A stretch of 42,406 bases of DNA, from positions 1-42,406 of IMG/VR virus record IMGVR_UViG_2663762841_000006; one strand, 5' to 3'. The notes under the pieces are model-generated. The model saw nothing but the letters and a program-made list of their open reading frames with translations, made no database searches and had not been told where the DNA came from. Below, one piece after another: positions 1-35,862 of the stretch. Positions within the stretch are counted from its first letter, which is position 1; each line of letters opens with the position of its first letter. The position numbers and the translations under genes are program-made. The DNA comes from a virus. Its lineage: Duplodnaviria > Heunggongvirae > Uroviricota > Caudoviricetes.

Positions 1-870
1 TTGCTTGACAGCTTCACCGAAAAAATGGCGCGAAATTTTCATTTCGAATATGGAACAGCGCGCGCCTGGGGATCTTTTGGCTATGCTATTGGCGCGTTCT
101 TTGCCGGCATATTTTTTAGTATCAGTCCCCATATCAACTTCTGGTTGGTCTCGCTATTTGGCGCTGTATTTATGATGATCAACATGTGTTTTAAAGATAA
201 GGATCACCAGTGCGTAGCGGCGGATGCGGGAGGGGTAAAAAAAGAGGATTTTATCGCAGTTTTCAAGGATCGAAACTTCTGGGTTTTCGTCATATTTATT
301 GTGGGGACGTGGTCTTTCTATAACATTTTTGATCAACAACTTTTTCCTGTCTTTTATGCAGGTTTATTCGAATCACACGATGTAGGAACGCGCCTGTATG
401 GTTATCTCAACTCATTCCAGGTGGTACTCGAAGCGCTATGCATGGCGATTATTCCTTTCTTTGTGAATCGGGTAGGGCCAAAAAATGCATTACTTATCGG
501 TGTTGTGATTATGGCGTTGCGTATCCTTTCCTGCGCGCTGTTCGTTAACCCCTGGATTATTTCATTAGTGAAGCTGTTACATGCTATTGAGGTTCCACTT
601 TGTGTCATATCCGTCTTCAAATACAGCGTGGCAAATTTTGATAAGCGCCTGTCGTCGACGATCTTTCTGATTGGTTTTCAAATTGCCAGTTCGCTTGGGA
701 TTGTGCTGCTTTCAACGCCGACTGGGATACTCTTTGACCACGCAGGCTACCAGACAGTTTTCTTCGCAATTTCGGGTATTGTCTGCCTGATGTTGCTATT
801 TGGCATTTTCTTCTTGAGTAAAAAACGCGAGCAAATAGTTATGGAAACGCCTGTACCTTCAGCAATATAG
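1..870 (+). CDS. cscB: LacY-family oligosaccharide:H+ symporter (MFS), C-terminal 289 codons only; 5' end outside window; probably sucrose permease CscB-like
   Basis: ORF open from window edge; translation aligns by eye with the C-terminal half of LacY (EKMARNFHFEYGTARAWG ~ EKVSRRSNFEFGRARMFG; YNIFDQQL ~ YDVFDQQF; GPKNALLI ~ GGKNALLL; LHAIEVPL ~ LHMFEVPF). Symbol is an inference from family plus argW-adjacent context. Confidence 0.7.
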   Translation: MLDSFTEKMARNFHFEYGTARAWGSFGYAIGAFFAGIFFSISPHINFWLVSLFGAVFMMINMCFKDKDHQCVAADAGGVKKEDFIAVFKDRNFWVFVIFIVGTWSFYNIFDQQLFPVFYAGLFESHDVGTRLYGYLNSFQVVLEALCMAIIPFFVNRVGPKNALLIGVVIMALRILSCALFVNPWIISLVKLLHAIEVPLCVISVFKYSVANFDKRLSSTIFLIGFQIASSLGIVLLSTPTGILFDHAGYQTVFFAISGIVCLMLLFGIFFLSKKREQIVMETPVPSAI

Positions 871-1312
871 ACGTAAACTTTTTCCGGTTGTTGTCGATAG
901 CTCTATATCCCTCAACCGGAAAATAATAATAGTAAAATGCTTAGCCCTGCTAATAATCGCCTAATCCAAACGCCTCATTCATGTTCTGGTACAGTCGCTC
1001 AAATGTACTTCAGATGCGCGGTTCGCTGATTTCCAGGACATTGTCGTCATTCAGTGACCTGTCCCGTGTATCACGGTCCTGCGAATTCATCAAGGAATGC
1101 ATTGCGGAGTGAAGTATCGAGTCACGCCATATTTCGCTATCAGGATTCTGTGTGATGGTTACATCGCCCGGCCCAGGGCTGTTTAGTCATCAGCGCTTTC
1201 TGACAGTGCTGAGATTTCAACCTGTTGCAGTAAAAATGAGTAGATATAAGGCAAGTGTGCTGCCAAACCCATCTTTTACGGGGTGAAGGTAGATTTCGTT
1301 TGAAGGGTATCT

Positions 1313-1326
1313 GGTGTCCCTGCAGA
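1313..1326. other. putative att core copy (left prophage junction); tggtgtccctgcag, a one-base-deleted copy of the argW 3' terminus
   Basis: Direct comparison with 41324..41338 (tggtgtcccctgcag) inside the intact tRNA. Confidence 0.55.
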
Positions 1327-1384
1327 CATCTACTTGACGCGGCAGGGGATTGATTAGAATGGTGTTTTTTAGATGTGAGAAATA

Positions 1385-1404
1385 TTTTACCCGCTATTTT
1401 ACCC
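1385..1404. repeat. two direct copies of TTTTACCC (1385..1392, 1397..1404), putative integrase arm-type binding sites
   Basis: Same 8-mer occurs three more times at 41163..41207 beside the int start; five copies of an 8-mer within the two att-flanking regions is far above chance. Confidence 0.5.
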
Positions 1405-1599
1405 ATTGGCGCGGCTTAAGAGCTTATTTTTGAATTCACAATGGTCACGATATAACCATCTTGCTCGCCCGTGGATAACTTTGGCTTTAGGCAGGTCTCC
1501 GGACTTAATCCGGTCATATATGAAGGTTTTACCGAAGCCAGTATCAGCCATGATGAATTTCAAATCAACCAGGGAATCAGGCTGTAGTTCGTGTTGCAT
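1399..1599 (-). CDS. AlpA-family HTH DNA-binding protein, putative excisionase/Xis
   Basis: 66 aa; motif LKFIMADTGFGKTFIYDRIKSGDLPKAKVIHGRARW typical of AlpA/Xis-type MerR-like HTH; sits next to the att core and arm repeats. Confidence 0.65.
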   Translation of the reverse strand: MQHELQPDSLVDLKFIMADTGFGKTFIYDRIKSGDLPKAKVIHGRARWLYRDHCEFKNKLLSRANG

Positions 1600-1722
1600 G
1601 AGTGCTATCTCCGAATAGGGAATCGAACCTGCAAATCAGGTAATAAAAAAACCGCATTGATGCGCCGATGGTAGGTCTGGATATCTTGATAAATGAAAAT
1701 GCCTCATCGAGTGTGAGGCGGG

Positions 1723-2067
1723 TTAATCCTTGCGTAGCTCGCTGATTCTTCTGTAAGTCTCTGGTGCTTTGTTCCCGTACGTCTTCATTTCAGACTTCAA
1801 CAGAGCAACGAGTGAATCCCATTCGTTGAGGATTCCTTTGAATGCCGGAACGCGCTTTGCAACCTTGTCGAATGAATCTCTGATTTCTGGAATCTGCTCA
1901 ACAAGTGCAACGCATCGCCGAAAGTCTGCTGCGTCATGTGGAGCACCGAAGCTATGACCATAGATATTCTTTTTCAGTCCACATGCGATTGAGGCAAGAG
2001 TTGCGCTACTGATGCCAACATCGCCAGTCGATTGCCATTTCAAAACCTTCATAGCCAAATCTGACAT
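1723..2067 (-). CDS. hypothetical early-region (ea) protein, 114 aa
   Basis: ORF with GGAGA Shine-Dalgarno before the ATG at 2067; the track ORF extends to 2094 but lacks an RBS there. Confidence 0.5.
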   Translation of the reverse strand: MSDLAMKVLKWQSTGDVGISSATLASIACGLKKNIYGHSFGAPHDAADFRRCVALVEQIPEIRDSFDKVAKRVPAFKGILNEWDSLVALLKSEMKTYGNKAPETYRRISELRKD

Positions 2068-2081
2068 TTCTTGTCTCCAAT

Positions 2082-2102
2082 AAAAAACCGCCATCAGGCG
2101 GC
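2082..2102 (-). terminator. rho-independent terminator-like hairpin (ccgcc/ggcgg) followed by U-run on the minus strand
   Basis: Plus-strand aaaaaaccgccatcaggcgg; lies between two co-directional early-left genes, consistent with a terminator overridden by N antitermination. Confidence 0.45.
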
Positions 2103-2167
2103 TTGGTGTTCTTTCAGTTCTTCAATTCGAATATTGGTTACATTGTTTTCATATATGAATAAATAAA

Positions 2168-2347
2168 TTAGCTTTTTCCGTTGCCTTCGCGATCTTTATT
2201 AATTTTGACAAACTCGTTTTTACCACGCTCTCCAAATGCGTCTTTAGAGTCGTTGTATCCGCAATCGCAGCACACATAATCACCAGACCATCCACGCATT
2301 GTTTTTTCTTTTGCAATATTTCCAGAACCGCATTTTGGACAAGACAT
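2168..2347 (-). CDS. small zinc-ribbon protein (CPKC...CCDC), 59 aa
   Basis: Two CxxC pairs; GGAGG Shine-Dalgarno 7 nt before the internal ATG at 2347, so the track start at 2380 is rejected. Confidence 0.5.
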   Translation of the reverse strand: MSCPKCGSGNIAKEKTMRGWSGDYVCCDCGYNDSKDAFGERGKNEFVKINKDREGNGKS

Positions 2348-2443
2348 ATCACTACCTCCAAAGCATGAGTGAGATGACAACGTAACATTGATTGGAGATT
2401 AACAATAGATTGCTGATGTAAAAGATATGTATAAGCTTCGCTT

Positions 2444-3013
2444 TCAAAGTGGAGGCTCTGGTAGCGGCATCCAGTGAGTTACGTCATCCAAGATATTTCC
2501 TGATAAATACGTGAAAGCTCTATATTTTTTGTAATCAATTGGATTTACAACCCAGTTCCAATATGCGGCCACGATTTCACCTTGACTAAATGCCAGTAAC
2601 ATTTTGGTGTCTTCCGGCATTCGATCACTACAGCTTATCCAACCATCCTTAATGCAATTACCTTGACTCTGAAGCATAGCGGCACGACAGGCGTTCCATC
2701 CGACAGCTTTTCCGTGTTCAAACGCGCTGTCAAAGTCATCATCCATTTCCATCGCAGCAGGCACAGATACCGGCGCTGGCGGTGCGGTGTAAACGGCCAC
2801 GTGAGTTGAACTGTATCGATAGGCTTCACGGTCATTCGACAACCCGCAACTGCCTGTTTTCTCATATGCCGCTTTATGCACATATCCATATGGCTCCGCT
2901 TCGAGCGATGCCAGCGCGATACGCGCCAGCTCAGCCGCTTCGTCATCTTGAACGCAATACCATGCGTTTCCAGATGCTAATTGTTCCAGACGTTCTTTGG
3001 GAATAGTGCTCAT
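2444..3013 (-). CDS. phage early-region protein with DUF551-like C-terminal domain
   Basis: 189 aa; C-terminal DGWISCSDRMPE...HWMPLP motif recalled from DUF551 phage proteins; AAGGAG RBS; ATGA overlap with upstream gene. Confidence 0.5.
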   Translation of the reverse strand: MSTIPKERLEQLASGNAWYCVQDDEAAELARIALASLEAEPYGYVHKAAYEKTGSCGLSNDREAYRYSSTHVAVYTAPPAPVSVPAAMEMDDDFDSAFEHGKAVGWNACRAAMLQSQGNCIKDGWISCSDRMPEDTKMLLAFSQGEIVAAYWNWVVNPIDYKKYRAFTYLSGNILDDVTHWMPLPEPPL

Positions 3014-3447
3014 GATGCCTCTCCTTTACCTGCTTCGGTGACGTTTATTCCAGCGTTGTGCAGTGCCTCAAGAACCTGATGCTGCCTGTAAACCATTTCA
3101 GTGTGGTAAGGCTCGTCAAAATCGACGCGATGCAACATGCTATAGCATTGCGGAAGCACAACCTCCCGCAACTGCAGCTCAGCAATGCGCTTCTCTGCGG
3201 CTTCCAGCTCAACACGCAGTTTCCCTACCGTTAGCGCAATTTCCTCGTTCTCCTGATCGCGGAGTTTGATGTATTGCTGGTTCCTTTCCCGTTCATCCAG
3301 CAGTGCCAGCGCGATATCTGGCGAAAAGTGCTTCATAAAATCGTTAAGCGCATTAATTCGCTGATCGAAAGGCATTACAGGTGCTTCACCAGCAATTTTT
3401 GTTTTTTCAGCGATTTCACGAAGCTTTTGATAATCAATCTTGCTCAC
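3010..3447 (-). CDS. Ead/Ea22-like protein
   Basis: 145 aa, coiled-coil-rich; GTG start with AAGGAG RBS; family assignment from recalled similarity to lambda Ea22-type proteins. Confidence 0.5.
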
Positions 3448-3611
3448 TGCTTGACTCCTTTACGCCACATCGCATTCAGATATTTGTTGTCATTAACAGA
3501 ACCGAAACTCTTCCTTTTAAGCAATTCCTCTCTCGATGGCATTGGCTTTACGCGTTGGCGAATAATCATTTCTGCCGGAAGAATGCCGGGATTGTATGCA
3601 AGTCCTCTCAT
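3444..3611 (-). CDS. hypothetical small early protein (55 aa from the RBS-supported ATG)
   Basis: GAGGA RBS before the third in-frame ATG; track start at 3644 has no RBS. Confidence 0.35.
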
Positions 3612-3621
3612 GGTAAATTCC

Positions 3622-3918
3622 TCAGTCATTACTGATAGCGCCATAGCGTGAGCGGTAATTACGCAGGCGCGGGTCGATATATTCAGGGAAGTGGGTATAT
3701 ATGGATTTGCGGAATGGTCGGATTGATGTTTCGTTTATTCGGTCTTTTTCCTGTTTTTCTGCGAGTTGTATATCGCGTCGGTACTTCCGTTCTTCTTTTG
3801 TTTCCGGTGGCAGAGCAAGAAACGCGTCGAGATTATTCTTGATATTTTCCAGCACCTCCGATATGGAATTGCCGGAACAGCGGCGCGGGTCGTCCGCACC
3901 ATATAGAGGCGCTGGCAT
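3622..3918 (-). CDS. hypothetical early protein, 98 aa
   Basis: AGGAG RBS before ATG; tightly packed in the early-left operon. Confidence 0.45.
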
Positions 3919-3934
3919 GGTTTTCTCCTGTTGA

Positions 3935-4483
3935 TTATTTAGCTAACTTTTTCCAGATCGCTGAAACGTATTTGGCTTGGTGAATGGCATCATCAAGCGC
4001 GTTGTGGCGAGTTCCTTTGAATGGCATATCTCGCTTAGGGTCGAATCCTATTACCTTCCCAAGTTCGACGATTGTTCTTACGTCGCGGTCATTCCACCAC
4101 TGCCACGGAACTGGCTGCCCTGTCAGTGAATAACTGTTTCGGAGAATAACGCAGTCAAATGATGCTCCATTCCCCCAAACCTGAACGAATTTGTGGTTAG
4201 CGTTCTTTATGATGAATTCAGATAACCATGAAAGAGCCGTTGAAAGCTCTTGAGTGTTGCTGGTTAGCGATTTTCTGGCTTCTTCACTCTGTTCCATCCA
4301 CCATAAAATCGTTGAAGCGTCAGGACGCGCCCGATATCGCATTGATGACTCAAGCGAGATATTTACCGAGAACTCTTCTCCTGTTTCTCCGGTATTCGGG
4401 TCAAAGAATACCGCACCAATAGAAATAACTGGCGCATATGGCCCGTTGCCCATTGTTTCAAGGTCAACCATTAAGTGATTCAT
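3935..4483 (-). CDS. DnaQ-like (DEDDh) 3'-5' exonuclease
   Basis: 182 aa; N-terminal MVDLETMG (DxE) motif and C-terminal H...D motif typical of DEDD exonucleases. Confidence 0.65.
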   Translation of the reverse strand: MNHLMVDLETMGNGPYAPVISIGAVFFDPNTGETGEEFSVNISLESSMRYRARPDASTILWWMEQSEEARKSLTSNTQELSTALSWLSEFIIKNANHKFVQVWGNGASFDCVILRNSYSLTGQPVPWQWWNDRDVRTIVELGKVIGFDPKRDMPFKGTRHNALDDAIHQAKYVSAIWKKLAK

Positions 4484-4491
4484 GTAAGTCC

Positions 4492-4971
4492 TTAAATTGC
4501 GTGAATAGCGTGACGAGGGAAGGGGAGAGTTACTGGTTCCTCGTCTGGGTAGATAGGTTTGTTATGTTTGTGCCACTCGACATGACATGACTTGCAGAGC
4601 CACATCACATCGGTTGGTTTGCTGTAGTCGCAGTGGTGCGCCTGTGGTTTACATTCTGATCCGCAGCACTCACATTGTGGTGGTCGGATTAGCTTACCGT
4701 CGCGCAAAAAATTACCCACAATGATGTGGGCTTTTCTTTTCCATGGGTTGCTCTGAATGAACCGCTTTTTGGCTGCGTTACACCGTTCTCTTCCGCGTTC
4801 CGATGATTGATATTCTCTCCTTGCTGATACTCGATGTGGCAATCCAGCGCGTTCTTTGTCGTATTCAGCCAGGCAAGCCCGGCAAGCGGCAGTTAATCCA
4901 TCTCTGGATGCTCTTCTGATTTGAAAGTCCCTTTCTTCCTTCTGTTGATGGCATCTTGAGCAGACTTTCAT
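4492..4971 (-). CDS. HNH endonuclease-like zinc-finger protein
   Basis: 159 aa; several CxxC pairs and HHCDYSKPTDVMWLCKSCHVEWH HNH-type motif. Confidence 0.6.
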   Translation of the reverse strand: MKVCSRCHQQKEERDFQIRRASRDGLTAACRACLAEYDKERAGLPHRVSARREYQSSERGRERCNAAKKRFIQSNPWKRKAHIIVGNFLRDGKLIRPPQCECCGSECKPQAHHCDYSKPTDVMWLCKSCHVEWHKHNKPIYPDEEPVTLPFPRHAIHAI

Positions 4972-4980
4972 ATTCAGCTC

Positions 4981-5454
4981 CTAGAACGGAATATCCGAAT
5001 CGTCGAAGTTCATAGGTGGTTCGCTGTGATTCCCCTGCTGCTGAGATTGCTGTCTTTGTTGCTGACCGTTATTTCGCTGATGTGAAGACTGTTCATTGCC
5101 TCCTTGTTTGCCACCAAGCATTTGCATGGTTCCACCAACGCCCACGATGACTTCGGTAGTGAACCGATCCTGTCCACTTTGATCCTGCCATTTTCTTGTC
5201 CGCAATTTGCCTTCAAGATAAACCTCAGAGCCTTTTCGCAGATATTCGCTGGCAATTTCTGCCAGTTTCCCGCTCATTACCACGCGGTGCCACTCCGTCT
5301 GCTCCTTTTGCTCTCCAGTTTGCTTATCACGCCATTGTTCTGACGTAGCAACTGTAAGGTTTGCAAATGCCGTTCCTGATGGTGAATATCTGATTTCTGG
5401 ATCATGCCCAAGGCGACCAATAATGATCACCTTATTTACGCCTCTGCTTGCCAT
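4981..5454 (-). CDS. ssb: single-stranded DNA-binding protein
   Basis: 157 aa; OB-fold N-terminus ([15 protein letters not shown]...), Gly/Gln-rich linker, acidic DDSDIPF C-terminal tail. Confidence 0.9.
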
Positions 5455-6162
5455 TTATGCCGCCTGTTTTAGTTCGTTAACTCTGATGTTCATTACCTGA
5501 ACGCATTTAGCCTGCGCATCCTCATTGCCAGCCATTAATTGCCAGTCATGCTGATAACGCTCGATGAGTTTTTTCTTGTCAGTTTCTTTCGATGCAAAAT
5601 CGCTGAAGTCTTTCAGGATTTGTTCGTAGTCAACCGATGGAGATTTCTGGTTGGTATTTTCTGGTGATGGTTTGTTATCTGATGCTGGGATTGCCCATCC
5701 CGGCAGCGATGGAGGGAGCCAGTAAAATCCTGTTCCATCCTTGAGTTTTGCCCTGTGCCATCCCTGCTTTTTATCGAGAGATGTTTGTGCAAAACCTTCC
5801 TCAAGGTTATACAGATACCGACCGATTCCCCACTGAACGGCAGCGCGCTTCATTGCACCGGAACGACCGCCTTTGACGGCTTCTACCTGCGTGTTTTCAG
5901 CAGCATCCCATTTGGTTACCCATTCGGAATCAATCTTGATTGATATGCCGCATTCAACTCCGCCGTTGTTGGGAATATCGCGGTATTCATTGCGCCATCC
6001 TGCTTTGCCGCAAACATCGTCCAGGCGCTTCATGATTGCCCGGTTCGTGACATAAGCCAGCACCATAGCCCACACCTTGCCATCGCGTGTTTTACCGCTT
6101 TGCTGTATTCGCCATTCGATATCTTCAGGGCTGAATGGCTCATCGAATTTGTTCAAATCCAT
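5455..6162 (-). CDS. single-strand annealing recombinase (Rad52/Sak-like family, inferred)
   Basis: 235 aa directly upstream of ssb in the recombination module; family recalled from memory, not verified by profile search. Confidence 0.5.
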   Translation of the reverse strand: MDLNKFDEPFSPEDIEWRIQQSGKTRDGKVWAMVLAYVTNRAIMKRLDDVCGKAGWRNEYRDIPNNGGVECGISIKIDSEWVTKWDAAENTQVEAVKGGRSGAMKRAAVQWGIGRYLYNLEEGFAQTSLDKKQGWHRAKLKDGTGFYWLPPSLPGWAIPASDNKPSPENTNQKSPSVDYEQILKDFSDFASKETDKKKLIERYQHDWQLMAGNEDAQAKCVQVMNIRVNELKQAA

Positions 6163-6261
6163 AATTCACCTCAGAATGGACACGGCCCAAGGAAATAACG
6201 CTGATTTAATACTTCGACTCGGGACAAATTAAGGCATACCCGCATTCCTTCGCGGTCACCA

Positions 6262-6420
6262 TTATGGCGATACCAGAGAGCTTTCTGCGTGTACATGCGT
6301 CTCTGTAACTTGCTCTCCTTCACTGTGGTTGCAAGTGACATGAATATCTCCTTCGTTACCGATTAATTCTTTCATCTGACGAATGAATTCTTCGTCTGAC
6401 CAGTTATCTGTAAAACTCAT
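6262..6420 (-). CDS. small hypothetical protein, 52 aa (below the ORF-track cutoff)
   Basis: Manual translation MSFTDNWSDEEFIRQMKELIGNEGDIH...; start overlaps the stop of the upstream Kil-like ORF (ATGA). Confidence 0.3.
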   Translation of the reverse strand: MSFTDNWSDEEFIRQMKELIGNEGDIHVTCNHSEGEQVTETHVHAESSLVSP

Positions 6421-6569
6421 TTCCTGCGATACCACGGAAGGTTGATAGCTGATTTCATAGCTTTATTTGCTTCAAGCCACATTTTTGAATCACCAATAAA
6501 TCTGGCTATTACTGCTTTGTTCTGTGCTGCACGAAGCATCTGGTGATTAATGGCTATTTCATTGCGCAT
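6417..6569 (-). CDS. Kil-like small protein (50 aa), putative host cell-division inhibitor
   Basis: Manual translation MRNEIAINHQMLRAAQNKAVIARFIGDSKMW...; IA(R/T)FIGD(S/E)KM(W/F) resembles lambda Kil as recalled; position between CIII-like gene and recombinase fits. Confidence 0.4.
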   Translation of the reverse strand: MRNEIAINHQMLRAAQNKAVIARFIGDSKMWLEANKAMKSAINLPWYRRK

Positions 6570-6688
6570 AACGCCTCCAGTTGTTTCTTTGCTGCTCTGA
6601 TTAATTGTTTAACTCGGCGTGATAATTCAGATTCGTGCGGGTAGAAAGCGGACATGACGCCGCTACCCGCGAGCTGAAAGTGCATCAT
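6554..6688 (-). CDS. CIII-like small protein (44 aa), putative FtsH inhibitor
   Basis: Manual translation MMHFQLAGSGVMSAFYPHESELSRRVKQLIRAAKKQLEAL; resembles lambda CIII central region (ESLLERITRKLR); AAGGAG RBS. Confidence 0.4.
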   Translation of the reverse strand: MMHFQLAGSGVMSAFYPHESELSRRVKQLIRAAKKQLEALCAMK

Positions 6689-6763
6689 GGGTAACTCCTT
6701 ATATTTGATTGCATAACGAAAACGCCTAGAGTGAAGCGTTATTGGTATGCGGTAAAGCCGCGC

Positions 6764-7075
6764 TTAGGCGGCTGATGTTTCTTCTTTCAGGCTTTCGAGA
6801 TATTTACGTGGGTCGTCGTAACATTGGCATTCGCTGTACCAATCCACCCAGCGATCAGTAAGCCCCATCTCTGATAAATCTTCATCGGTAAGGCTCTCAT
6901 CCCACATCTCAAGGCCGTTAGCATTGCAGTAATCAGGCTTGATGTTGTTGTCATACTGAAAGGCGTCATAATCAGCCAGTGCGTCCATCAGGCGAACACC
7001 CTCTTCAACACTTGCCACTTCTGCAATGAACGGTTTCATAGGTACTTGCGGGATATGCCAGACACGTAATTTCAT
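6764..7075 (-). CDS. highly acidic 103-aa early protein, function unknown
   Basis: GGAGG RBS before ATG at 7075 (track start 7129 rejected); about 23 Asp/Glu versus 9 Lys/Arg. Confidence 0.5.
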   Translation of the reverse strand: MKLRVWHIPQVPMKPFIAEVASVEEGVRLMDALADYDAFQYDNNIKPDYCNANGLEMWDESLTDEDLSEMGLTDRWVDWYSECQCYDDPRKYLESLKEETSAA

Positions 7076-7176
7076 ATTTCCTCCGTCAAAAAAATTGCCC
7101 TCACACTGGAGGGCAAAGAAGATTTCCAATAATCAGAACAAGTCGGCTCCTGTTTAGTTACGAGCGACATTGCTCC

Positions 7177-7204
7177 GTGTATTCACTCGTTGGAATGAAT
7201 ACAC
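7177..7204 (-). promoter_or_regulatory. perfect 9-bp inverted repeat (gtgtattca/tgaatacac) with 10-nt loop, no U-run
   Basis: Seen directly; lies just downstream of the 156-aa gene on the PL transcript; possible rho-dependent or N-sensitive terminator, processing site or protein-binding site. Confidence 0.3.
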
Positions 7205-7218
7205 AGTGCTTACTCGTA

Positions 7219-7689
7219 CTAATAAAATACCCAATTTTCTGTTTCTTGGTTGTGCCCAAAGTTATATTCAATATCTGGTGTTGATGTATCAATATTCTTC
7301 ATCCCATCAACAAGAGTTGATACAACAGCCAAATCTTGTTTGATTCTCATTAAATGGTATTTCTTCCGGCGCAATAAACTTTCAATGGCAAGTTTCTTCG
7401 TTGGGAATGCAAAAGATCTTTCTGCATTTTTTGCTACTTTCTTAATTGCATATCTATTTCTCCTTTGTTTCCATTCCTGTAACCACTGATTTGGTGCTGG
7501 TTTAAAATTAACAATCCAATGCGCAGGAACCAACCATGCATAATGCTCTGTCTGATGAAAAGCTATATATTGAAGTGCGAATATTTTTATCCCATCTTCT
7601 TCAACTGTCGCCTGGAATCTCCAGAAAACAGGCATTCCATCATGTTCAGTTTCTGATTCAGGAAAAGGTACGCTCCATGATTTTGTCAT
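7219..7689 (-). CDS. AT-rich moron protein, 156 aa, unknown function, immediately downstream of N
   Basis: GAGGTGA RBS; coding sequence is visibly AT-rich (A/T-ending codons throughout) relative to neighbours; basic region KQRRNRYAIKKVAK...LLRRKKYHLMRIK. Confidence 0.55.
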   Translation of the reverse strand: MTKSWSVPFPESETEHDGMPVFWRFQATVEEDGIKIFALQYIAFHQTEHYAWLVPAHWIVNFKPAPNQWLQEWKQRRNRYAIKKVAKNAERSFAFPTKKLAIESLLRRKKYHLMRIKQDLAVVSTLVDGMKNIDTSTPDIEYNFGHNQETENWVFY

Positions 7690-7697
7690 ATCTCACC

Positions 7698-7997
7698 TCA
7701 AATAAGTGGTTTGCTGCCTAATTTCATTTTCTGGCGACCAACACAAGTCACACCCATTTCACTGCGTGGCTTGCGGTAGTAAATACGGTTCTGTTTACGC
7801 TCGACTTCATCTGCCTTCTTGCAGCGAAGGCTTACGAGTGATGCTGCTTTGTCTGCTCTGACGCAACCAGAGAGCTTTAGCGCAATCTTTCGCGCCAGTC
7901 GCTGTTCTTGCATTGCCTGTTCACGTTGAGCCTGTCTGCGTGCTCTGCGGCGATTTCTGGCGTTATCGTCAGCCAGATATGTAATGACTACTGTCAT
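7698..7997 (-). CDS. N-like transcription antitermination protein
   Basis: 99 aa; arginine-rich motif NARNRRRARRQAQREQ near N-terminus; GGAGG RBS; first gene downstream of PL/nutL. Confidence 0.6.
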   Translation of the reverse strand: MTVVITYLADDNARNRRRARRQAQREQAMQEQRLARKIALKLSGCVRADKAASLVSLRCKKADEVERKQNRIYYRKPRSEMGVTCVGRQKMKLGSKPLI

Positions 7998-8192
7998 GTT
8001 GACCTCCGATGATTGACTTTGGTGATTGGATGGCCGGTGCTGAATTCCGGCTTACTGGTTAGAGCGCCCGCACTACCAGTGACGCTGTCTTGAGGCGCAG
8101 ATTGGTTACTGCTTGCCATGAGCGCTGTTTATACATTGGTCGAGCATCAGCCTGCTCATTCATCCAATCCCAAAGCCAACTACTCTTTGGTT

Positions 8193-8232
8193 CCCGCATT
8201 TCGGCGGGACAATCCCATCAATGTTAAAGAGC
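8193..8232 (-). promoter_or_regulatory. nutL (boxA ggctctttaa; boxB cccgccgaaatgcggg)
   Basis: boxA close to CGCTCTTTA consensus; boxB hairpin identical to the one at 9350..9365 (nutR) in the opposite orientation. Confidence 0.6.
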
Positions 8233-8278
8233 CTGCCAATCTATTCCGTTTGGCTACCAGCGTCCTGCTGATGGCTTA

Positions 8279-8308
8279 AATTTAAGATCTCTTTAATTAA
8301 TGGTCAAG
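8279..8308 (-). promoter_or_regulatory. PL promoter (-35 TTGACC, -10 TAAATT/TTAAAT) with TTAAG-containing operator-like palindromes
   Basis: Read on minus strand; 17-18 bp spacing; sits between cI terminator and nutL. Confidence 0.45.
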
Positions 8309-8374
8309 AATATTTTTGAAGAAAACTTAAATTTTCTTTCGTGACTTAAGTTTGGCTTTGATTTTTAAAGGAAA

Positions 8375-8398
8375 TAAAAAAAAAGGGGCGAATGCCCC
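8375..8398 (-). terminator. rho-independent terminator downstream of repressor gene
   Basis: Hairpin ggggc-gaat-gcccc followed on minus strand by a long U-run (plus-strand A10). Confidence 0.7.
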
Positions 8399-8399
8399 C

Positions 8400-9050
8400 T
8401 TATGGAAGGTTTGCTAGTTTTGCATCGACAACTACGCCGATGATTTTGCAGTTTCCGTTGATCTCGATCATCGGATATTGTGGGTTAAGTGGTTTTAGAA
8501 ACTTCCTGCCTGCATCAATAACTAACTTCTTGAAAGTTGCCTCGTTTTCTCCTTCGAGCTTTGCAACTACCAGTTTCCCGTTACGCGGCTCTACTTCAGG
8601 ATCGACGAGTATTATCATTCCTTCAGGGATACTGAGACCGGCCGGAGCCGTCATTGAGTCTCCCTTCACGTCCAACCAAAACGAATCTTCTGAACAGTCT
8701 ACGGTTGTATCGTACCAGTTATCTATTGCACGCTTATGATATGGTTCTACAGCTTCCATCCAGCATCCTGCGCTCACCCAGCTAATCAGAGGGTATGACC
8801 CTCTTGGATCATGCCTACTGTGATAGGCAATGTTTGAAAGACTTTCCTCTCCTTTCATCAGATAGTCAGGGGAACACTTCAACGCATTAGCCAGGGCGAG
8901 AAGATTCTCTCCATTTGGCTCTGTCTCAGAGCGTTCCCACTGAGATATGGCAACATTAGACACGCCGACCATCTTTCCAAGTGCGGCCTGCCTGATCTTG
9001 AGTTCTTTTCTCCGAGCGCGAATGCGCTCTCCCATCAATTGAGTTTTCAT
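8400..9050 (-). CDS. c2: CI/C2-type prophage repressor (HTH + LexA-like S24 peptidase domain), P22 C2-like
   Basis: 216 aa; N-terminal HTH (QAALGKMVGVSNVAISQWER), C-terminal autocleavage domain (AG, GDSM, K motif); appears near-identical to the P22 C2 sequence as I recall it. Confidence 0.9.
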   Translation of the reverse strand: MKTQLMGERIRARRKELKIRQAALGKMVGVSNVAISQWERSETEPNGENLLALANALKCSPDYLMKGEESLSNIAYHSRHDPRGSYPLISWVSAGCWMEAVEPYHKRAIDNWYDTTVDCSEDSFWLDVKGDSMTAPAGLSIPEGMIILVDPEVEPRNGKLVVAKLEGENEATFKKLVIDAGRKFLKPLNPQYPMIEINGNCKIIGVVVDAKLANLP

Positions 9051-9053
9051 AGT

Positions 9054-9117
9054 TAAGACATCTTAAATAAACTTGACTTAAGATTCCTTTGGTGGATAAT
9101 TTAAGTGTTCTTTAATT
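9054..9117 (+). promoter_or_regulatory. OR/PR region: PR (-35 TTGACT 9074..9079, -10 GATAAT 9096..9101) with P22-type operators (ttaagacatcttaa; atttaagtgttctttaat)
   Basis: Promoter hexamers and imperfect palindromes read directly; operator sequence resembles P22 OR as recalled. Confidence 0.6.
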
Positions 9118-9130
9118 TCGGAGCGAGTCT

Positions 9131-9316
9131 ATGTACAAGAAAGATGTTATCGACCACTTCGGAACCCAGCGTGCTGTCGCTAAAGCGTTAGGCATTAGCG
9201 ACGCAGCAGTCTCTCAGTGGAAGGAAGTCATCCCAGAGAAAGACGCCTATCGACTGGAAGTCGTTACAGCTGGCGCCCTGAAGTATCAAGAAAGCGCTTA
9301 CCGCAAAGCGGCATAA
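9131..9316 (+). CDS. cro: Cro repressor (P22-type)
   Basis: 61 aa HTH protein (QRAVAKALGISDAAVSQW) transcribed divergently from the repressor gene. Confidence 0.85.
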   Translation: MYKKDVIDHFGTQRAVAKALGISDAAVSQWKEVIPEKDAYRLEVVTAGALKYQESAYRKAA

Positions 9317-9323
9317 GCAAATT

Positions 9324-9365
9324 GCTCTTTAACAGTCATGGTCCTCATTCCCGCCGAAATGCGGG
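9324..9365 (+). promoter_or_regulatory. nutR (boxA gctctttaa; boxB cccgccgaaatgcggg)
   Basis: Same boxA/boxB pair as nutL, here on the plus strand between cro and the CII-like gene. Confidence 0.6.
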
Positions 9366-9424
9366 AATACAACGCACATAAGTTGATGCGTATAACTTCT
9401 TATTTGTTAAGGAAATACTTACAT

Positions 9425-9703
9425 ATGCAACTTACAAGTACTCGCAAGAAAGCGAATGCAATTACAAGCAACATCCTGAATCGAATTGCTGTACGTGGTC
9501 AGCGAAAGGTTGCTGATGCATTAGGGATTAATGAATCGCAAATTTCGCGATGGAAAGACAGCTTCATCCCAAAAATGGGAATGCTTCTGGCTGTTCTTGA
9601 ATGGGGTGTTGAAGACGAGGAGTTGGCGGAACTGGCTAAGAAAGTAGCCAGAATGCTGACAAAAGAAAAAGCCCCGAAGAACGGCGAATTCTTCGAGGCC
9701 TGA
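9425..9703 (+). CDS. cII: CII-like transcriptional activator
   Basis: 92 aa from ATG with AAGGA RBS; LLAVLEWGV and ESQISRWK motifs match lambda CII as recalled; track start 9338 rejected. Confidence 0.75.
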   Translation: MQLTSTRKKANAITSNILNRIAVRGQRKVADALGINESQISRWKDSFIPKMGMLLAVLEWGVEDEELAELAKKVARMLTKEKAPKNGEFFEA

Positions 9704-9737
9704 TGTAGAAAGACTGGATCAATCCACAGGAGTAATT

Positions 9738-9899
9738 ATGACAAAACGTCGTAAGAAATACCAGGAAAAAGAAGAGATTCGACACCCTGATTCACCTGAG
9801 GGATTAGTGGTAGCCGCAGCAAATAACAGGGCGTTCGCAGAGCGCCTTGTTGGTGTTTACAGACTAGCCAAAGCAGGAGTGAAACATGGGCGTCGTTAA
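9738..9899 (+). CDS. small basic hypothetical protein, 53 aa
   Basis: Manual translation MTKRRKKYQEKEEIRHPDSPEGLVVAAANNRAFAERLVGVYRLAKAGVKHGRR; CAGGAG RBS. Confidence 0.35.
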   Translation: MTKRRKKYQEKEEIRHPDSPEGLVVAAANNRAFAERLVGVYRLAKAGVKHGRR

Positions 9900-9948
9900 G
9901 TTAGCTGATTACAGGCATAACCCTGTACAACATCAGGAGGCATCCAGT

Positions 9949-10776
9949 ATGGGGTATGTCTCTATACACCGCCAGTTTATGGACAGCAGGCTCTATAAGG
10001 ACTCTCAGGCAGTACATCTTTGGCTTCACTTAATCCTCAAGGCTAATCACGAATCTACTGTCGTCAATACGGATATCGGTCCGATAACTGTTGATCGCGG
10101 TCAGATGATAACTGGACGCCCGTCGCTGGTCAGAGAAACATTCATTCCCGACAACAAAGTTCGGAGCTTATTACGGACTTTTGAGTCGAAAGGGATGCTT
10201 AATATTTGCTCGATGGGGAAGAAATTTAGCCTGTTTACAATCGTTAAATATGACGATTTTCAGGCAAAAAATTGTCCAACGGTTGTCCAACGGTTGTCCA
10301 ACGCAAACACCAGTAATGGCGCGGCTCTCAGTGGAGATTGTCCAACGGTTGTCCAACGGTTGTCCATAAACAATAATATAAATAATATCTCTAATACTGA
10401 CGTATTAGAGAGTGCCACAGCAGACAAAAAGTCTGACAAGAAAAAACCTTCCGTTAGCTGTCAGGATGTTGTCGATGCTTACCACGAAATCCTTCCTGAA
10501 GCGCCAAGAATCCGCGCACTGAATGACAAGCGTAAAAACCAGATCCGAACGTTCTGGCGCAAAGCCGGAGTGATAACCCGCCAGCTTGACGGACATGGGT
10601 TCACGATGCAGGACTGGAGAAATTATTTGAGCTACGTAGGCGAAAATTGTCGATGGATGTTCGAAGAGCGTCCAAACCATCAACGTGGAACTGTCTGGCA
10701 CAAAAAGGGATTTGATTTCCTGCTTAACGATAATACCTACCTGAAAGTTCGTGAGGGTGAACACGATGACCGATAA
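9949..10776 (+). CDS. replication initiator (lambda O / P22 gene 18 analog) containing the origin iterons
   Basis: AGGAGG RBS before ATG 9949; six 11-bp iterons inside the gene; immediately followed by the helicase gene. Confidence 0.65.
   Translation: MGYVSIHRQFMDSRLYKDSQAVHLWLHLILKANHESTVVNTDIGPITVDRGQMITGRPSLVRETFIPDNKVRSLLRTFESKGMLNICSMGKKFSLFTIVKYDDFQAKNCPTVVQRLSNANTSNGAALSGDCPTVVQRLSINNNINNISNTDVLESATADKKSDKKKPSVSCQDVVDAYHEILPEAPRIRALNDKRKNQIRTFWRKAGVITRQLDGHGFTMQDWRNYLSYVGENCRWMFEERPNHQRGTVWHKKGFDFLLNDNTYLKVREGEHDDR
10272..10400. repeat. replication origin: six iterons TTGTCCAACGG (10272..10304 and 10338..10370) followed by an AT-rich stretch (10368..10400)
   Basis: Exact tandem repeats seen directly; in-frame, encoding the repeated peptide CPTVVQRLS. 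Confidence 0.75.
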
Positions 10777-12202
10777 TTTTTATGCGCCGCCCCATAGCAT
10801 CGAGGCAGAGCAGGCGGTGATTGGTGGATTGCTTCTGGATGATGACAGCAGTGAGCGCGTCCAGAAAGTTCTGGCGATGCTGAAGCCTGATTCATTTTAC
10901 AGCCGACCACACAAAATCCTTTTCGAAGAAATAACCAGAATGCACCGGGAGCAAAAGCCAGTAGATGGCCTGACGCTTTTCGATGAACTTGAGCGTAAAT
11001 CGTTAACGGCGTCTGTTGGAGGTTTTGCTTATATCGCTGAGATCGCAAAGAACACGCCAAGTGCAGCAAACATCGTTGCCTATGCAATGCAGGTTCGTGA
11101 AACCGCAATGGAACGCTACGCCATCAACCGCATGACTGAAGCGACGGAATTGCTCTATTCCCGCAACGGAATGACTGCAACGCAGAAGTACGAAGCTATT
11201 CAGGCGATTTTCACGCAACTGACAGACCATGCAAAAACCGGATCGCGTCGTGGCCTTCGCTCATTTGGTGAGGTCATGGAAGACTGGGTTAGCGACCTTG
11301 AGAAGCGATTTGACCCGTCAGGCGAACAGCGAGGAATGAGCACAGGGATCCCATCGCTGGACAGGATGCTGTCACCGAAAGGTCTGGTGAAAGGCTCTCT
11401 GTTTGTCATTGGCGCTCGCCCTAAGATGGGGAAAACGACGCTATACAGCCAGATGGCAATCAACTGCGCAGTGCATGAGAAAAAGCCCGCTCTGATGTTC
11501 AGCCTTGAAATGCCAGGCGACCAGATACTGGAAAAACTGGTAGGACAGAAGTCAGGTGTTAACCCGAATATTTTTTACCTTCCGGCGACAAATGACGCTG
11601 ATGACGGCTATCAGGGTGATTACGATGGTGACTTCAACAGGGCGATCGAAACAGCCAATCGCTTGAGTGAAATCGACCTGCTTTACATCGACGACACGCC
11701 GGGATTATCTCTGGCTCAAATCGTCAGCGAAAGCCGTCGAATCAAGCGAGAAAAAGGATGTGTTGGCATGATTCTGGTCGATTACCTGACACTAATGACC
11801 GCTGAGAAGGCCGATCGCAACGACCTTGCTTACGGCATGATCACCAAAGGACTGAAGAACCTTGCCAAAGAGCTTGATTGCGTTGTTGTGCTTCTGACAC
11901 AGCTTAACCGCGCACTGGAAAGCCGAACCAATAAACGCCCATTACCAAGTGACTCACGAGATACAGGGCAGATTGAACAGGATTGCGATTATTGGGTGGG
12001 GATCCATCGTGAAGGCGCTTTTGATGACAGCGTTCCTCCTGGTGAAACCGAACTAATCCTTCGCCTCAATCGTCATGGCAATACCGGCACGGTGTATTGC
12101 ATTCAGGCAAATGGCGCTATTTATGACACAGACCAACAGTCTGCTGAAATGCGCCGCCGTGAACGCGAGGAACCGCAGTCCAAGAAGAAAGGAGGATTCT
12201 GA
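10766..12202 (+). CDS. replicative DNA helicase, DnaB family (P22 gene 12 analog)
   Basis: Walker A GARPKMGKT, DnaB N-terminal motif SIEAEQAVIGGLL; GAGGG RBS before ATG 10766. Confidence 0.85.
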   Translation: MTDNFYAPPHSIEAEQAVIGGLLLDDDSSERVQKVLAMLKPDSFYSRPHKILFEEITRMHREQKPVDGLTLFDELERKSLTASVGGFAYIAEIAKNTPSAANIVAYAMQVRETAMERYAINRMTEATELLYSRNGMTATQKYEAIQAIFTQLTDHAKTGSRRGLRSFGEVMEDWVSDLEKRFDPSGEQRGMSTGIPSLDRMLSPKGLVKGSLFVIGARPKMGKTTLYSQMAINCAVHEKKPALMFSLEMPGDQILEKLVGQKSGVNPNIFYLPATNDADDGYQGDYDGDFNRAIETANRLSEIDLLYIDDTPGLSLAQIVSESRRIKREKGCVGMILVDYLTLMTAEKADRNDLAYGMITKGLKNLAKELDCVVVLLTQLNRALESRTNKRPLPSDSRDTGQIEQDCDYWVGIHREGAFDDSVPPGETELILRLNRHGNTGTVYCIQANGAIYDTDQQSAEMRRREREEPQSKKKGGF

Positions 12203-12277
12203 TGACCATCTACATCACTGAGCTAATAACAGGCCTGCTGGTAATCGCAGGCCTTTTTATTTGGGGGAGAGGGAAGT

Positions 12278-12604
12278 GTGGCTGACTGGCAAATTCCAAT
12301 CATCATTCTTGCCGGAGCTTCGCTGGTTGCTGGCTTTATCCTGCTGAAAAAGCATAAAGACCGTGATCAAAAAGTCGAAGTTCTCTATGGGTATCCAGCG
12401 AACAGCACAACATGGCTGACCATTTACCACTACCGAAAATCAGGCCGCTGGGTATTCGAATGGGATGATCTGTTTGCTGAAAAGCGACCAAAGTCATGGG
12501 GAGACATCAGCGAATGCATGATGTTTGAAGAAAGAAAATCCGGCGCAACCCGAGAAGAGTTTAACGAAGCGTGGGCGCGATTAAGTGAGAGAGGGTATTT
12601 GTGA
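12278..12604 (+). CDS. hypothetical membrane-anchored protein, 108 aa (ren-slot gene)
   Basis: GTG start with GGGAGAGGG RBS; N-terminal hydrophobic helix IPIIILAGASLVAGFILL. Confidence 0.45.
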   Translation: MADWQIPIIILAGASLVAGFILLKKHKDRDQKVEVLYGYPANSTTWLTIYHYRKSGRWVFEWDDLFAEKRPKSWGDISECMMFEERKSGATREEFNEAWARLSERGYL

Positions 12605-12801
12605 GCAAGTACGAAAAATTAGATCAAAACATTCTTTCAATGCTGAGTGAAAGACCAACACCTGTTTTTGATATCTGGCTTAAATGGCGGAGCAATGGAA
12701 TGTATATCGAAACCATCGATCGCCGTATGCAATACCTGAGAAAGAAAGGGCTTGTTGCAAATGTGCGTGGGAAGGGTTGGGTGAAAATTAACCTGTCATA
12801 A
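12601..12801 (+). CDS. hypothetical protein, 66 aa
   Basis: GTG start overlapping the upstream stop; no recognised motif. Confidence 0.35.
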   Translation: MSKYEKLDQNILSMLSERPTPVFDIWLKWRSNGMYIETIDRRMQYLRKKGLVANVRGKGWVKINLS

Positions 12802-12812
12802 CGGGGATTGAT

Positions 12813-13079
12813 ATGGACGAATCAAGAAAGCAGTTTGAAGAATGGTTTAAAAACAAATATCACGTTTCAAGTGACGTGATGAAGATTATGCACATCAAGG
12901 TCGAGATTGCATGGGAGGCATGGCAGGCATCGCGAGCAGCTATTGAAATTGAGCTGCAAAAGCCAAAGAAAGGCCCACTTCCCGGTGATTATCACATTGG
13001 CTATGACTCAGGTGCAGAATCACAATACGAAAGCGATGTAGAGGCCATCCGCGCGGCTGGAGTTAAAGTGAAGGAGTGA
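12813..13079 (+). CDS. hypothetical protein, 88 aa
   Basis: ORF with ATG start; no recognised motif. Confidence 0.4.
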   Translation: MDESRKQFEEWFKNKYHVSSDVMKIMHIKVEIAWEAWQASRAAIEIELQKPKKGPLPGDYHIGYDSGAESQYESDVEAIRAAGVKVKE

Positions 13080-13081
13080 GT

Positions 13082-13288
13082 ATGACAAATCAGCAGCAAA
13101 TAGAGTTCATCCTTGAGCAGATCAGAAAAATGCGAGAAAAGAACCAGCCAGACATGATGGAAATATGGAGACGCCAGCAGGAAGAATACCGCAAGCATAT
13201 TTTTGGTGAGAGAAAACAGGATGACTGGAGCCTATATGGCTATGGCACCAGGACAAATAAAAACGGATATAGCCTTTACACATATTGA
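13082..13288 (+). CDS. hypothetical protein, 69 aa
   Basis: AAGGAG RBS 5 nt before ATG 13082. Confidence 0.4.
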   Translation: MTNQQQIEFILEQIRKMREKNQPDMMEIWRRQQEEYRKHIFGERKQDDWSLYGYGTRTNKNGYSLYTY

Positions 13289-13296
13289 GGAATTCC

Positions 13297-13707
13297 ATGA
13301 AACAGACAATTTTCCTCAGGAGTAAGCAACAACAGCAAGCCGCAATCAACGCCATCCTCGCAACACCACTCGATAAAGACAAGCCAGTTACCATCCGCAT
13401 TACTGACTACAAGCGCAACCTTGACCAGAACGCAAAATTTCACGCGATGCTGGCGGATATCGCAAGTCAGGTTCAATGGTGCGGCAAATGGTTAAAACCA
13501 GAACAGTGGAAGGTTTTGTTGATTAGCGGTCATGCAGTGGCAACAAAACAGGAAGCTGATGTTTTGCGCGGCCTTGAAGGCGAATTCGTCAACATTCGCG
13601 AAAGCAGCGCGCAGATGAGTGTGAAGCGTATGGCAAGTCTGATCGAGTACACAACAGCCTGGGCTATTGGTCAGGGTGTCAGATTTACCGACAGGAGGTA
13701 CGAATGA
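13297..13707 (+). CDS. ninB: NinB (recombination protein, lambda NinB/Orf family)
   Basis: GAGGA RBS; RNLDQN and WCGKWL motifs match lambda NinB as recalled. Confidence 0.8.
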
Positions 13708-13880
13708 GACGACAGCGACGAAGTATCACCGACATAATCTGCGAAAACTGCAAATACCTTCCAACGAAGCGCTCCAGAAACAAACGCAAGCCAATCCCAA
13801 AAGAATCTGACGTAAAAACCTTCAATTATACGGCTCACCTGTGGGATATCCGGTGGCTAAGACATCGTGCGAGGAAATGA
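13704..13880 (+). CDS. ninD: NinD-like small protein, 58 aa
   Basis: Manual translation [32 protein letters not shown]...; AGGAGG RBS; ATGA overlap with ninB stop; identity to lambda NinD recalled but not verified. Confidence 0.45.
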
Positions 13881-13882
13881 CG

Positions 13883-14827
13883 ATGACTGCGTATTACAAC
13901 GAAATAGATCCGTATGCAGCGCAATGGCTGCGTAACTTAATTGACGCTGGAGAAATTGCCCCCGGTTATGTAGATGAAAGGAGTATTGAAGATGTCACAC
14001 CAGGTGATTTGCGAGGATTTACCCAGCACCACTTTTTTGCAGGAATCGGAGTTTGGAGCTATGCACTTAGAAAAGCAGGATGGCCAGACAACAAGAGTAT
14101 CTGGACAGGAAGTTGCCCATGCCAACCTTTCAGCTCGGCAGGCAAAGGAAAAGGGGTTGATGACGAGCGGCACTTATGGCCGGCATTCTTCTGGCTTATT
14201 GAAAAATGCAATCCTGGCATCGTTATTGGCGAACAGGTTGCAAGCGCAGACGGCCTCGCTTGGCTCGACCTTGTACAAACTGACTTGGAAGGTGCGAACT
14301 ACACCTCTGCAGGTACCGATATTTGCGCTGCGGGCTTCGGTTCTCCGCACATCAGGCAGCGATTGTATTGGGTGGCCTACTCCAACGACAAATATCAACT
14401 TTCAGCCAGAGACACGCAGGGGAATTCAGAACCTATCTGGATGCGTGAGACTAGCGGGATGGCAAACTCCTTTAGCGAACGATGCAACAGGTTCAACGCA
14501 TTGCTACAGCGGAAAAGACAAGAGCGGAACCCCAAGAATCTGCTTGAAACTTCCCGGGACGGTGAAGCTATGTACCCATTACCGGTTAACGGCTTCTGGA
14601 GAGATGCAGACTGGCTTTACTGTAGAGATGAAAAATATCGTCCAGTTAGACCCGGCTCATTCCCGATGGTTAATGGCATTGCCAAAAGCTTGGGACGAGG
14701 CAAGTCCACACTGGGAAGAATGGCAAAGCGCAATCAAGATCAGCGAATTATTGGATATGGAAACGCAATCAATGCAGAAGTAGCAACGGCATTCGTGAAA
14801 GTTTGTATGGAGGTTGTTAATGCTTAG
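13883..14827 (+). CDS. DNA (cytosine-5)-methyltransferase, orphan (no cognate nuclease gene seen)
   Basis: Motif I FFAGIG, motif IV PCQPFSSAG, motif VI-like GEQV, motif VIII QRLYWVAY, motif X GNAI; start chosen at second ATG for RBS spacing. Confidence 0.75.
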   Translation: MTAYYNEIDPYAAQWLRNLIDAGEIAPGYVDERSIEDVTPGDLRGFTQHHFFAGIGVWSYALRKAGWPDNKSIWTGSCPCQPFSSAGKGKGVDDERHLWPAFFWLIEKCNPGIVIGEQVASADGLAWLDLVQTDLEGANYTSAGTDICAAGFGSPHIRQRLYWVAYSNDKYQLSARDTQGNSEPIWMRETSGMANSFSERCNRFNALLQRKRQERNPKNLLETSRDGEAMYPLPVNGFWRDADWLYCRDEKYRPVRPGSFPMVNGIAKSLGRGKSTLGRMAKRNQDQRIIGYGNAINAEVATAFVKVCMEVVNA

Positions 14828-17339: not shown

Positions 17340-17414
17340 GGGTCAGTCGTATAAAGGTCATTACGGAAGGCTGTTAACCTTCTTATCGTGGTTCGAGTCC
17401 ACGCTGCCCCTCCA
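17340..17414 (+). tRNA. tRNA with GUU anticodon (Asn-type), 75 nt, one U4-C69 mismatch in acceptor stem
   Basis: Manual cloverleaf fold: acceptor gggtcag/ctgcccc, anticodon stem gaagg/ccttc, loop cuGUUaa, T-arm cgtgg-ttcgagt-ccacg, encoded CCA. Confidence 0.6.
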
Positions 17415-17419
17415 AATAT

Positions 17420-17495
17420 GCTGGTTTAGCTCCAATGGTAGAGCAGTCGCCTTGTAAGCGAATGGGTAGCGGTTCAAGTCCGTTAACCAGCACCA
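17420..17495 (+). tRNA. tRNA with UGU anticodon (Thr-type), 76 nt
   Basis: Manual fold: acceptor gctggtt/aaccagc perfect, D-stem gctc/gagc, anticodon loop cuUGUaa, T-arm agcgg-ttcaagt-ccgtt, encoded CCA. Confidence 0.65.
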
Positions 17496-35688: not shown

Positions 35689-35862
35689 ATGATAGTCAAG
35701 TCAGACGCACCAAAGTACCCTTTGCGCATCCCATTAGAGGTTAAGTTAGCAATCGAGAAGTCAGCGAAAGAAAATGGTCGCTCAATAAATACCGAGATGG
35801 TAATGCGGTTAGTGGATAGTTTAAGGCGGGATAGTTCTAAAGGTAATCTAGCAAAAAGTTGA
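35689..35862 (+). CDS. arc: Arc-like ribbon-helix-helix repressor
   Basis: 57 aa from ATG with GGAGG RBS; [18 protein letters not shown] resembles P22 Arc (ENGRSVNSEIYQRVMESF). Confidence 0.7.

Follow-up and report, generated by a model that had tools for sequence, protein, structure and literature searches.

The stretch of DNA analyzed here (hereafter the window, 42,406 nt) comprises what its sequence indicates to be an apparently complete P22-like (Lederbergvirus) prophage of ~40 kb, inserted in the 3' end of argW in an Escherichia coli chromosome. To its left, positions 1..870 (plus strand) hold the 3' part of a host gene for a cscB-like sucrose/oligosaccharide MFS permease (Pfam LacY_symp, E = 7e-133), which related genomes list as an oligosaccharide MFS transporter or a sucrose permease. 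The gene is followed by a host intergenic flank (871..1311) that in strain AR_0014, as in many further genomes, continues without interruption into argW. To its right lie the intact tRNA-Arg(CCU) gene argW (41324..41398, minus strand; identified by ARAGORN, with 63.4 bits for the Rfam tRNA family) and the host gene yfdC (41474..42406, minus strand; Pfam Form_Nir_trans, and annotated as yfdC in relatives). The prophage reads as a mosaic Lederbergvirus related to HK620, Sf6, IME10, N7, and Kapi1. Among its other features are a tRNA-Asn(GTT) and a tRNA-Thr(TGT) gene at 17340..17495, between the Q antiterminator gene and the lysis genes, a match to the sar antisense RNA of the P22 immI region (35857..35923, minus strand; Rfam, 71.6 bits), and an HNH endonuclease ORF (36914..37408, minus strand) between the antirepressor gene and the tailspike gene.

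The genes of site-specific recombination are found at the two extremities of the element. On the left, a gene of 66 codons (1399..1599, minus strand) encodes a protein matching TorI, the 'Tor inhibition protein' of PDB 1Z4H, at 66/66 residues (100% identity, E = 7e-43), and the gene is called torI in relatives. It is the excision factor (RDF) of the KplE1/HK620/Sf6 recombination module, it lies at the end of the prophage opposite the integrase gene, and it reads toward the junction. On the right, intS (40005..41162, minus strand) codes for a 385-aa tyrosine integrase. Pfam recognizes in it an arm-binding, a central, and a catalytic domain (Arm-DNA-bind_3, Phage_int_M, and Phage_integrase), and the protein is 99.2% identical to IntS of K-12, 97.9% to Int of HK620, and 98.4% to Int of Sf6. 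We take the ATG at 41162 as its start and reject the upstream GTG at 41198 given by the ORF tool. The gene is beside argW and is read away from the att site; it adjoins the gene of a tailspike with a P22 head-binding domain (37429..39876, 815 aa), at the far end of the prophage, where the sequence-only reading had placed it. In the prophage, torI and intS are ~38.4 kb apart.

Each extremity carries a copy of the 3' end of argW. The integrase-side core, TGGTGTCCCCTGCAG (41324..41338, minus strand), is the functional 3' end of the tRNA gene and is supplied by the phage. The torI-side core, TGGTGTCCCTGCAG (1312..1325, minus strand), is the displaced 3' end of argW, the counterpart of pawZ in K-12, and equals TGGTGTCCCCTGCAG minus one C, so that the duplicated core CTGCAGGGGACACCA(T) is perfect on the right and one C short of the 15-bp identity on the left. 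A 14-bp near-copy of the argW 3' end had been proposed at 1313..1326; the copy is real, and lies one base further to the left. Calling it a near-copy holds for the sequence of the window, but the close relatives carry a perfect 15-bp repeat. The unoccupied site of strain AR_0014 reads ...GAAGGGTATC-TGGTGTCCCCTGCAG-GAATCGAACC (argW)-yfdC, with the flank 871..1311 directly abutting the 3' end of argW, and the attP of both HK620 and Sf6 reads ...GAACTGATAAA-TGGTGTCCCCTGCAG-ACATCTACTTG...torI, where GAACTGATAAA is the int arm. In the window, the left junction consists of host flank, core, and ACATCTACTTG, and the right junction of GAACTGATAAA, core, and GAATCGAACC. The two are thus exact reciprocal products of the AR_0014 empty site and the HK620/Sf6 attP, and this comparison with an empty argW, which places both junctions to the base, bears out the predicted junction. 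The phage arm of the torI-side junction covers 1326..1404, with three differences (1337, 1340, and 1356) from KplE1 of K-12, HK620, and Sf6 between the core and torI. An 88-aa ORF (1140..1406, minus strand) crosses the junction. Its counterpart in the free phages is a 46-aa ORF over the attP core (hkaB in HK620, gene 17 in Sf6), which integration therefore splits, joining its start to host sequence; the 88-aa ORF is probably not a real gene. In phage record ON470622.1 (1945..3381), argW is bordered on its 5' side by a different element, which has an integrase of its own, and the first bases of the tRNA there are GGGGACA instead of GAGGACA. Different elements thus seem to use argW as a target from either end.

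The region between the integrase-side core and intS is identical or nearly so to attL of K-12. The promoter PintS (41199..41228, minus strand; -35 box TTGACA at 41223..41228 and -10 box TAAAAA at 41199..41204) is the same as that of K-12, for which the start site has been mapped by primer extension (PMC2951348). The K-12 attL has three P' arm-type IntS sites sharing a TAAA motif, one of which, P'1, overlaps the -10 box of PintS, and these sites act in the autorepression of IntS (PMC2951348). Their counterparts in the window are all copies of TTTTACCC on the minus strand: P'3 at 41163..41170, P'2 at 41178..41185, and P'1 at 41199..41207 (copy at 41200), which also overlaps the -10 box. Five TorI sites with the cores GTTCG, GATCG, or GTCCG were described in K-12 between the att core and the -35 box (PMC2951348), and five pentamers in the window match the published pattern, all on the minus strand: I5 (GATCG, 41229..41233), I4 (GTTCG, 41239..41243), I3 (GTTCG, 41249..41253), I2 (GTCCG, 41292..41296), and I1 (GTTCG, 41312..41316). 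A search of 1300..1420 for the pentamer G(T/A)(T/C)CG gave no match, and the predicted TorI sites are those of the integrase-side junction, not of the torI side. The strict IHF consensus WATCAANNNNTTR has no match in either att arm.

On the torI side, the sequence-only reading had pointed to two repeats next to the att core, and these are indeed present: TATTTTACCC occurs on the plus strand at 1383..1392 and, 12 bp further, at 1395..1404, where it overlaps the stop codon of torI. Their common 8-mer, TTTTACCC, is found six times in the window when 1.13 copies are expected (no shuffled sequence reached six), and five of the six copies, starting at 1385, 1397, 41163, 41178, and 41200, are within ~170 bp of the junction cores. 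The GenBank record of HK620 annotates the stretch matching 1384..1406 as an attP repeat. To see how far the arrangement is conserved, we scanned relatives of TorI with 60-100% protein identity, at 24 loci in Escherichia, Enterobacter, Serratia, Citrobacter, Dryocola, Pantoea, Tatumella, Rouxiella, Edwardsiella, Arsenophonus, and others. At 19 loci, from ~12 genera, two repeats of the GGGTAAA(A/T) type are spaced by 12 bp and overlap the torI stop codon. The core was found in 18 of these 19, always with 68 bp (69 bp in one locus) between repeat 2 and TGCAGGG, even though the intervening sequence is divergent. Such a fixed geometry is as expected for sites of one intasome. Given their identity to the mapped P' sites, which have the TAAA motif (PMC2951348), the annotation in HK620, and this conservation, we infer that both repeats at 1383..1404 are arm-type sites for the N-terminal domain of IntS. 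Loci of the TorI module were also found on contigs labelled Actinomycetes MAG and Parachlamydiaceae MAG. These are probably mis-binned enterobacterial DNA, because their modules closely resemble the one of Citrobacter type.

The region upstream of torI has its own link to the tRNA gene. An exact 16-nt copy of the argW T arm, GGAATCGAACCTGCAA, lies 20 nt before the torI start codon (1619..1634, minus strand; the original is in argW at 41338..41353), inside the stretch that corresponds to the pI (integration) promoter and cII site annotated in HK620. This motif (GGTTCGATTCC) is the tRNA-side sequence that adjoins the crossover in attB, and it includes a TorI-type pentamer, GTTCG. Ten torI loci, representing at least eight genera, share its core, GGTTCGATT(C/T)C, unchanged, and the mean column identity of the surrounding region is 57%. 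The copy may have remained from tRNA capture, or may act as an operator in the torI promoter. A simple sigma-70 scan of 1000..2500 found no promoter, which is uninformative on torI since the scan also missed the proven PintS, whose -10 box TAAAAA fails its rule. Further upstream there are two terminator-like hairpins on the minus strand, at 1701..1719 and at 2085..2104, the latter being shared with HK620, where it also precedes torI. Compared with HK620 and Sf6, an additional segment of ~440 bp (1650..2090) separates torI from this conserved terminator in the window, with an ORF of 123 aa (1723..2094; a shorter start is annotated in relatives) that has no Pfam match. The segment looks like a moron-type insertion, with similar ATAAAAAAACCGC sequences at its bounds.

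The regulatory genes of the prophage tell how torI would be expressed. The cI-like repressor gene (8400..9050) and the gene of an N-like protein (7698..7997) are on the minus strand, and cro (9131..9316) and cII (9338..9703) are on the plus strand. From these positions, the PL operon is therefore predicted to run on the minus strand, through erf/abc-type genes and toward torI, its last gene, with intS remaining outside. It had been proposed that int is uncoupled from PL in the prophage, and the two ends of the element agree with this: PL ends at torI, whereas intS is at the other end with its own promoter. In the free genomes of HK620 and Sf6, the order is int - attP core - torI, and the annotation includes the attP repeats and distinct promoters for excision and integration. 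The same order was predicted for the excised circle, alpA (here torI) - attP - int, and the window junctions are the reciprocal recombinants of this form. As attP lies between torI and intS, integration places the two genes at opposite ends of the prophage. In K-12, intS is read from its own promoter inside the att arm, and both IntS and TorI repress PintS, which keeps the amount of IntS low and within a narrow, constant range; production of TorI suffices to trigger excision (PMC2951348). By analogy, loss of the repressor would deliver TorI as the product of the last gene of an N-antiterminated PL operon, and TorI, IntS, and IHF would then recombine the two cores, yielding the circle torI - attP - intS.

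Together, these observations lead us to identify the region at 1312 as the excisionase-side attachment junction (attR in the nomenclature of K-12) of a recombination module of the KplE1/HK620/Sf6 type, a reading to which we give a probability of about 95%. Both the layout and its interpretation are already known. The annotations of HK620 (2001) and Sf6 (2004) display the split between int and torI. Panis 2007 (JBC) is said to have mapped the torI-side arm sites and to have presented the module as 'a new recombination module'. Panis 2010 spoke of 'a new paradigm' and reported that the overlap between attL and the integrase promoter is widespread in prophages inserted in tRNA genes (PMC2951348). 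The 'unusual regulatory asymmetry' announced by the sequence-only reading is thus right as a layout, but had been published and is reported to be common in such prophages (PMC2951348). Panis 2012 found TorI to be 100% identical in HK620 and Sf6 (PMC3509656), and the description of Kapi1 notes that attP lies between int and xis, which are thus at opposite ends of the prophage (PMC8787464).

The closest of these systems, KplE1 (CPS-53) of E. coli K-12, shares with the window the integration site, the core, TorI (100%), and IntS (99.2%); its PintS, P' arm sites, and TorI pentamers are nearly identical, and its torI and intS are also at opposite ends. It differs in being a 10-kb remnant without repressor, when the element studied here is an apparently complete 40-kb P22-like prophage, and in its host flank, which is dsdC in K-12 and cscB here; the left core with one C less is also a difference. 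HK620 and Sf6, both Lederbergvirus, have the order int - attP core - torI (the last gene being hkaC and gene 18, respectively) and are 96-97% identical to the window over the module. They are mosaic with respect to it, since 38-48% of either prophage half aligns, and they differ by the extra ~440-bp gene that the window has upstream of torI and by the C at position 1641 of the window, within the annotated cII site. Kapi1 (from E. coli MP1) and CUS-3 also integrate in argW, but differ in their O-antigen and tailspike modules, and a duplication of 17 bp is reported for Kapi1 (PMC8787464). More distant systems also transcribe the integrase and the RDF separately, such as P4 (Int/Vis) and P2/186 (Int, Cox/Apl). 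In the satellite P4 both proteins down-regulate int (PMC2951348). Proteins and sites are nevertheless different in these phages, and the RDF of P2/186 is the first lytic gene, whereas torI is here the last of the early-left operon. Lambda and P22 share with the window a tyrosine integrase of the heterobivalent kind that uses arm and core sites, an RDF that is a small winged-helix protein, and the lambdoid PL/N context. In lambda, however, xis is next to int and both are transcribed together from PL, attP is downstream of int, and there is sib retroregulation, whereas here attP separates torI from intS, which has an autoregulated promoter inside the att arm. We also considered a lambda-type int-xis module as the assignment for this locus and rejected it, since ~38.4 kb lie between torI and intS in the prophage, and attP lies between them in the circle.

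Other explanations of the torI-side region were weighed against this assignment. A match of 14 bp may arise by chance, in which case the true end of the prophage would be elsewhere, and indeed 0.33 occurrences of a 14-mer with up to two mismatches are expected in the window. Yet the host homology stops, and the homology to HK620, Sf6, IME10, and Kapi1 starts, exactly at the element at 1312, as seen by megablast against phage genomes and in the comparisons of empty site, attP, and lysogens; this refutes a chance match, to which we give practically no weight. The TTTTACCC repeats might instead serve TorI as binding sites, or serve the torI gene as a regulatory element or terminator, as their position directly 3' of the gene and over its stop codon could suggest. 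This is very improbable, because the published TorI sites are G(T/A)(T/C)CG pentamers (PMC2951348), all five of which are at the other junction, because the three P' sites to which IntS binds at PintS consist of the same 8-mer (PMC2951348), and because neither hairpin nor T-run was found at 1383..1404. Finally, the small gene could encode a transcriptional activator of the AlpA type, turning on the integrase gene in the way AlpA turns on intA of CP4-57, and not a DNA-bending excisionase. The protein is small, has a helix-turn-helix, and is encoded at the end of a prophage, and it gives weak matches to Pfam HTH_17 (16.9 bits, for a cut-off of 27) and Phage_AlpA (PF05930; 12.7 bits, for a cut-off of 21, E = 0.12). 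Both are below threshold, and NCBIfam, which has no TorI model, gave no match to the 66-aa protein. The complete identity to TorI, which is required for the excision of KplE1 in vivo and in vitro and represses intS (PMC2951348, PMC3509656), leaves an activator hardly credible. Hence, the gene had been correctly described as an excisionase read toward the junction, but its assignment to the AlpA family is not supported by the family models, and 'AlpA-like' is at most a loose description of its product.

With the assignment to the KplE1/HK620/Sf6 module in place, the locus is ordinary except for the base missing from the repeat, i.e., one C in the run at 1319..1321. The core is a dyad, GATGTC-TGCAGGG-GACACC, and from this symmetry and the conserved spacing between arm and core we infer an overlap of 7 bp, CCCTGCA on the plus strand of the window. 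The corresponding crossover region would here have 6 bp (CCTGCA, 1319..1324), against the 7-bp CCCTGCA of all relatives, between the half-sites GGTGTC (1313..1318) and GACATC (1325..1330), a placement that is consistent with the 19 loci from other genera. The half-sites covary in Edwardsiella (GGCGTA/AACGCC) and in Pantoea BRM17 (GACGTC/GACGCC), while no covariation was seen in Dryocola, Arsenophonus, and Candidatus Pantoea communis, so this partial pattern is at most suggestive. The deletion is found in none of the 258 complete E. coli genomes that have the same flank-core-arm junction (among 5,426 complete genomes). The best E. coli matches are all 97.9% identical over the span of 48 nt, and all have the extra C. 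Over 1..3400, this one C is all that distinguishes strain SWYH.B349aT from the window. Since CCCC thus occurs in an identical background of 3.4 kb, we favor a mutation that arose recently in this sequence alone, or else a sequencing error in the homopolymer. We also considered that CCC could have been inherited from an earlier P4-like satellite at argW, as the same variant is found beside a different argW element in 68 genomes (E. coli ATCC 43896 and 67 others). The satellite of ATCC 43896 (410..14363 of that locus) has psu, a sid-like gene, a primase, and its own integrase of 424 aa. At its distal junction, the displaced tRNA end also has the CCC form, and the identity to the tRNA is longer there, running through GAATCGAA.

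If the base is truly missing, one of the two partner sites has a putative overlap of 6 instead of 7 bp, which should strongly impair excision. The module would then be the known one in a disabled copy, the 6-bp left crossover blocking strand exchange by IntS, and the prophage would be locked in the chromosome or excise very poorly. The absence of the deletion from the 258 comparable lysogens, its being the only difference from SWYH.B349aT over 1..3400, and the conservation of at least 7 nt (TGCAGGG) between the dyad half-sites in all 18 cores found in other genera are in line with this idea. With the integrase of lambda, heterology in the 7-bp overlap strongly lowers recombination, and this provides a precedent. 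On the other hand, the deletion could be an error of sequencing in a homopolymer, the position of the overlap comes from symmetry and a crossover to the left of the C run could tolerate the variant, and the 68 genomes with CCC beside another element indicate that the variant can persist. We therefore regard a disabled copy as possible but unlikely.

In practice, the result is a correct annotation of the window: the ends of the prophage to the base, torI, intS, the arm sites, the TorI sites, and PintS. Conceptually it adds nothing, as work on KplE1, HK620, and Sf6 from 2001 to 2012 had already clarified how int and xis are split and what this entails for their regulation. What it adds is the invariant spacing between arm and core across ~12 genera, a private 1-bp deletion in the putative overlap, and a conserved motif of the argW T arm upstream of torI. 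That the missing C is real and, by reducing the left crossover from 7 to 6 bp, grounds an otherwise intact and inducible P22-like prophage is a doubtful proposition. If true, the induced phage would replicate and package in situ without clean excision, thereby favoring the lateral transduction of the adjacent yfdC-mlaA-fadL region.
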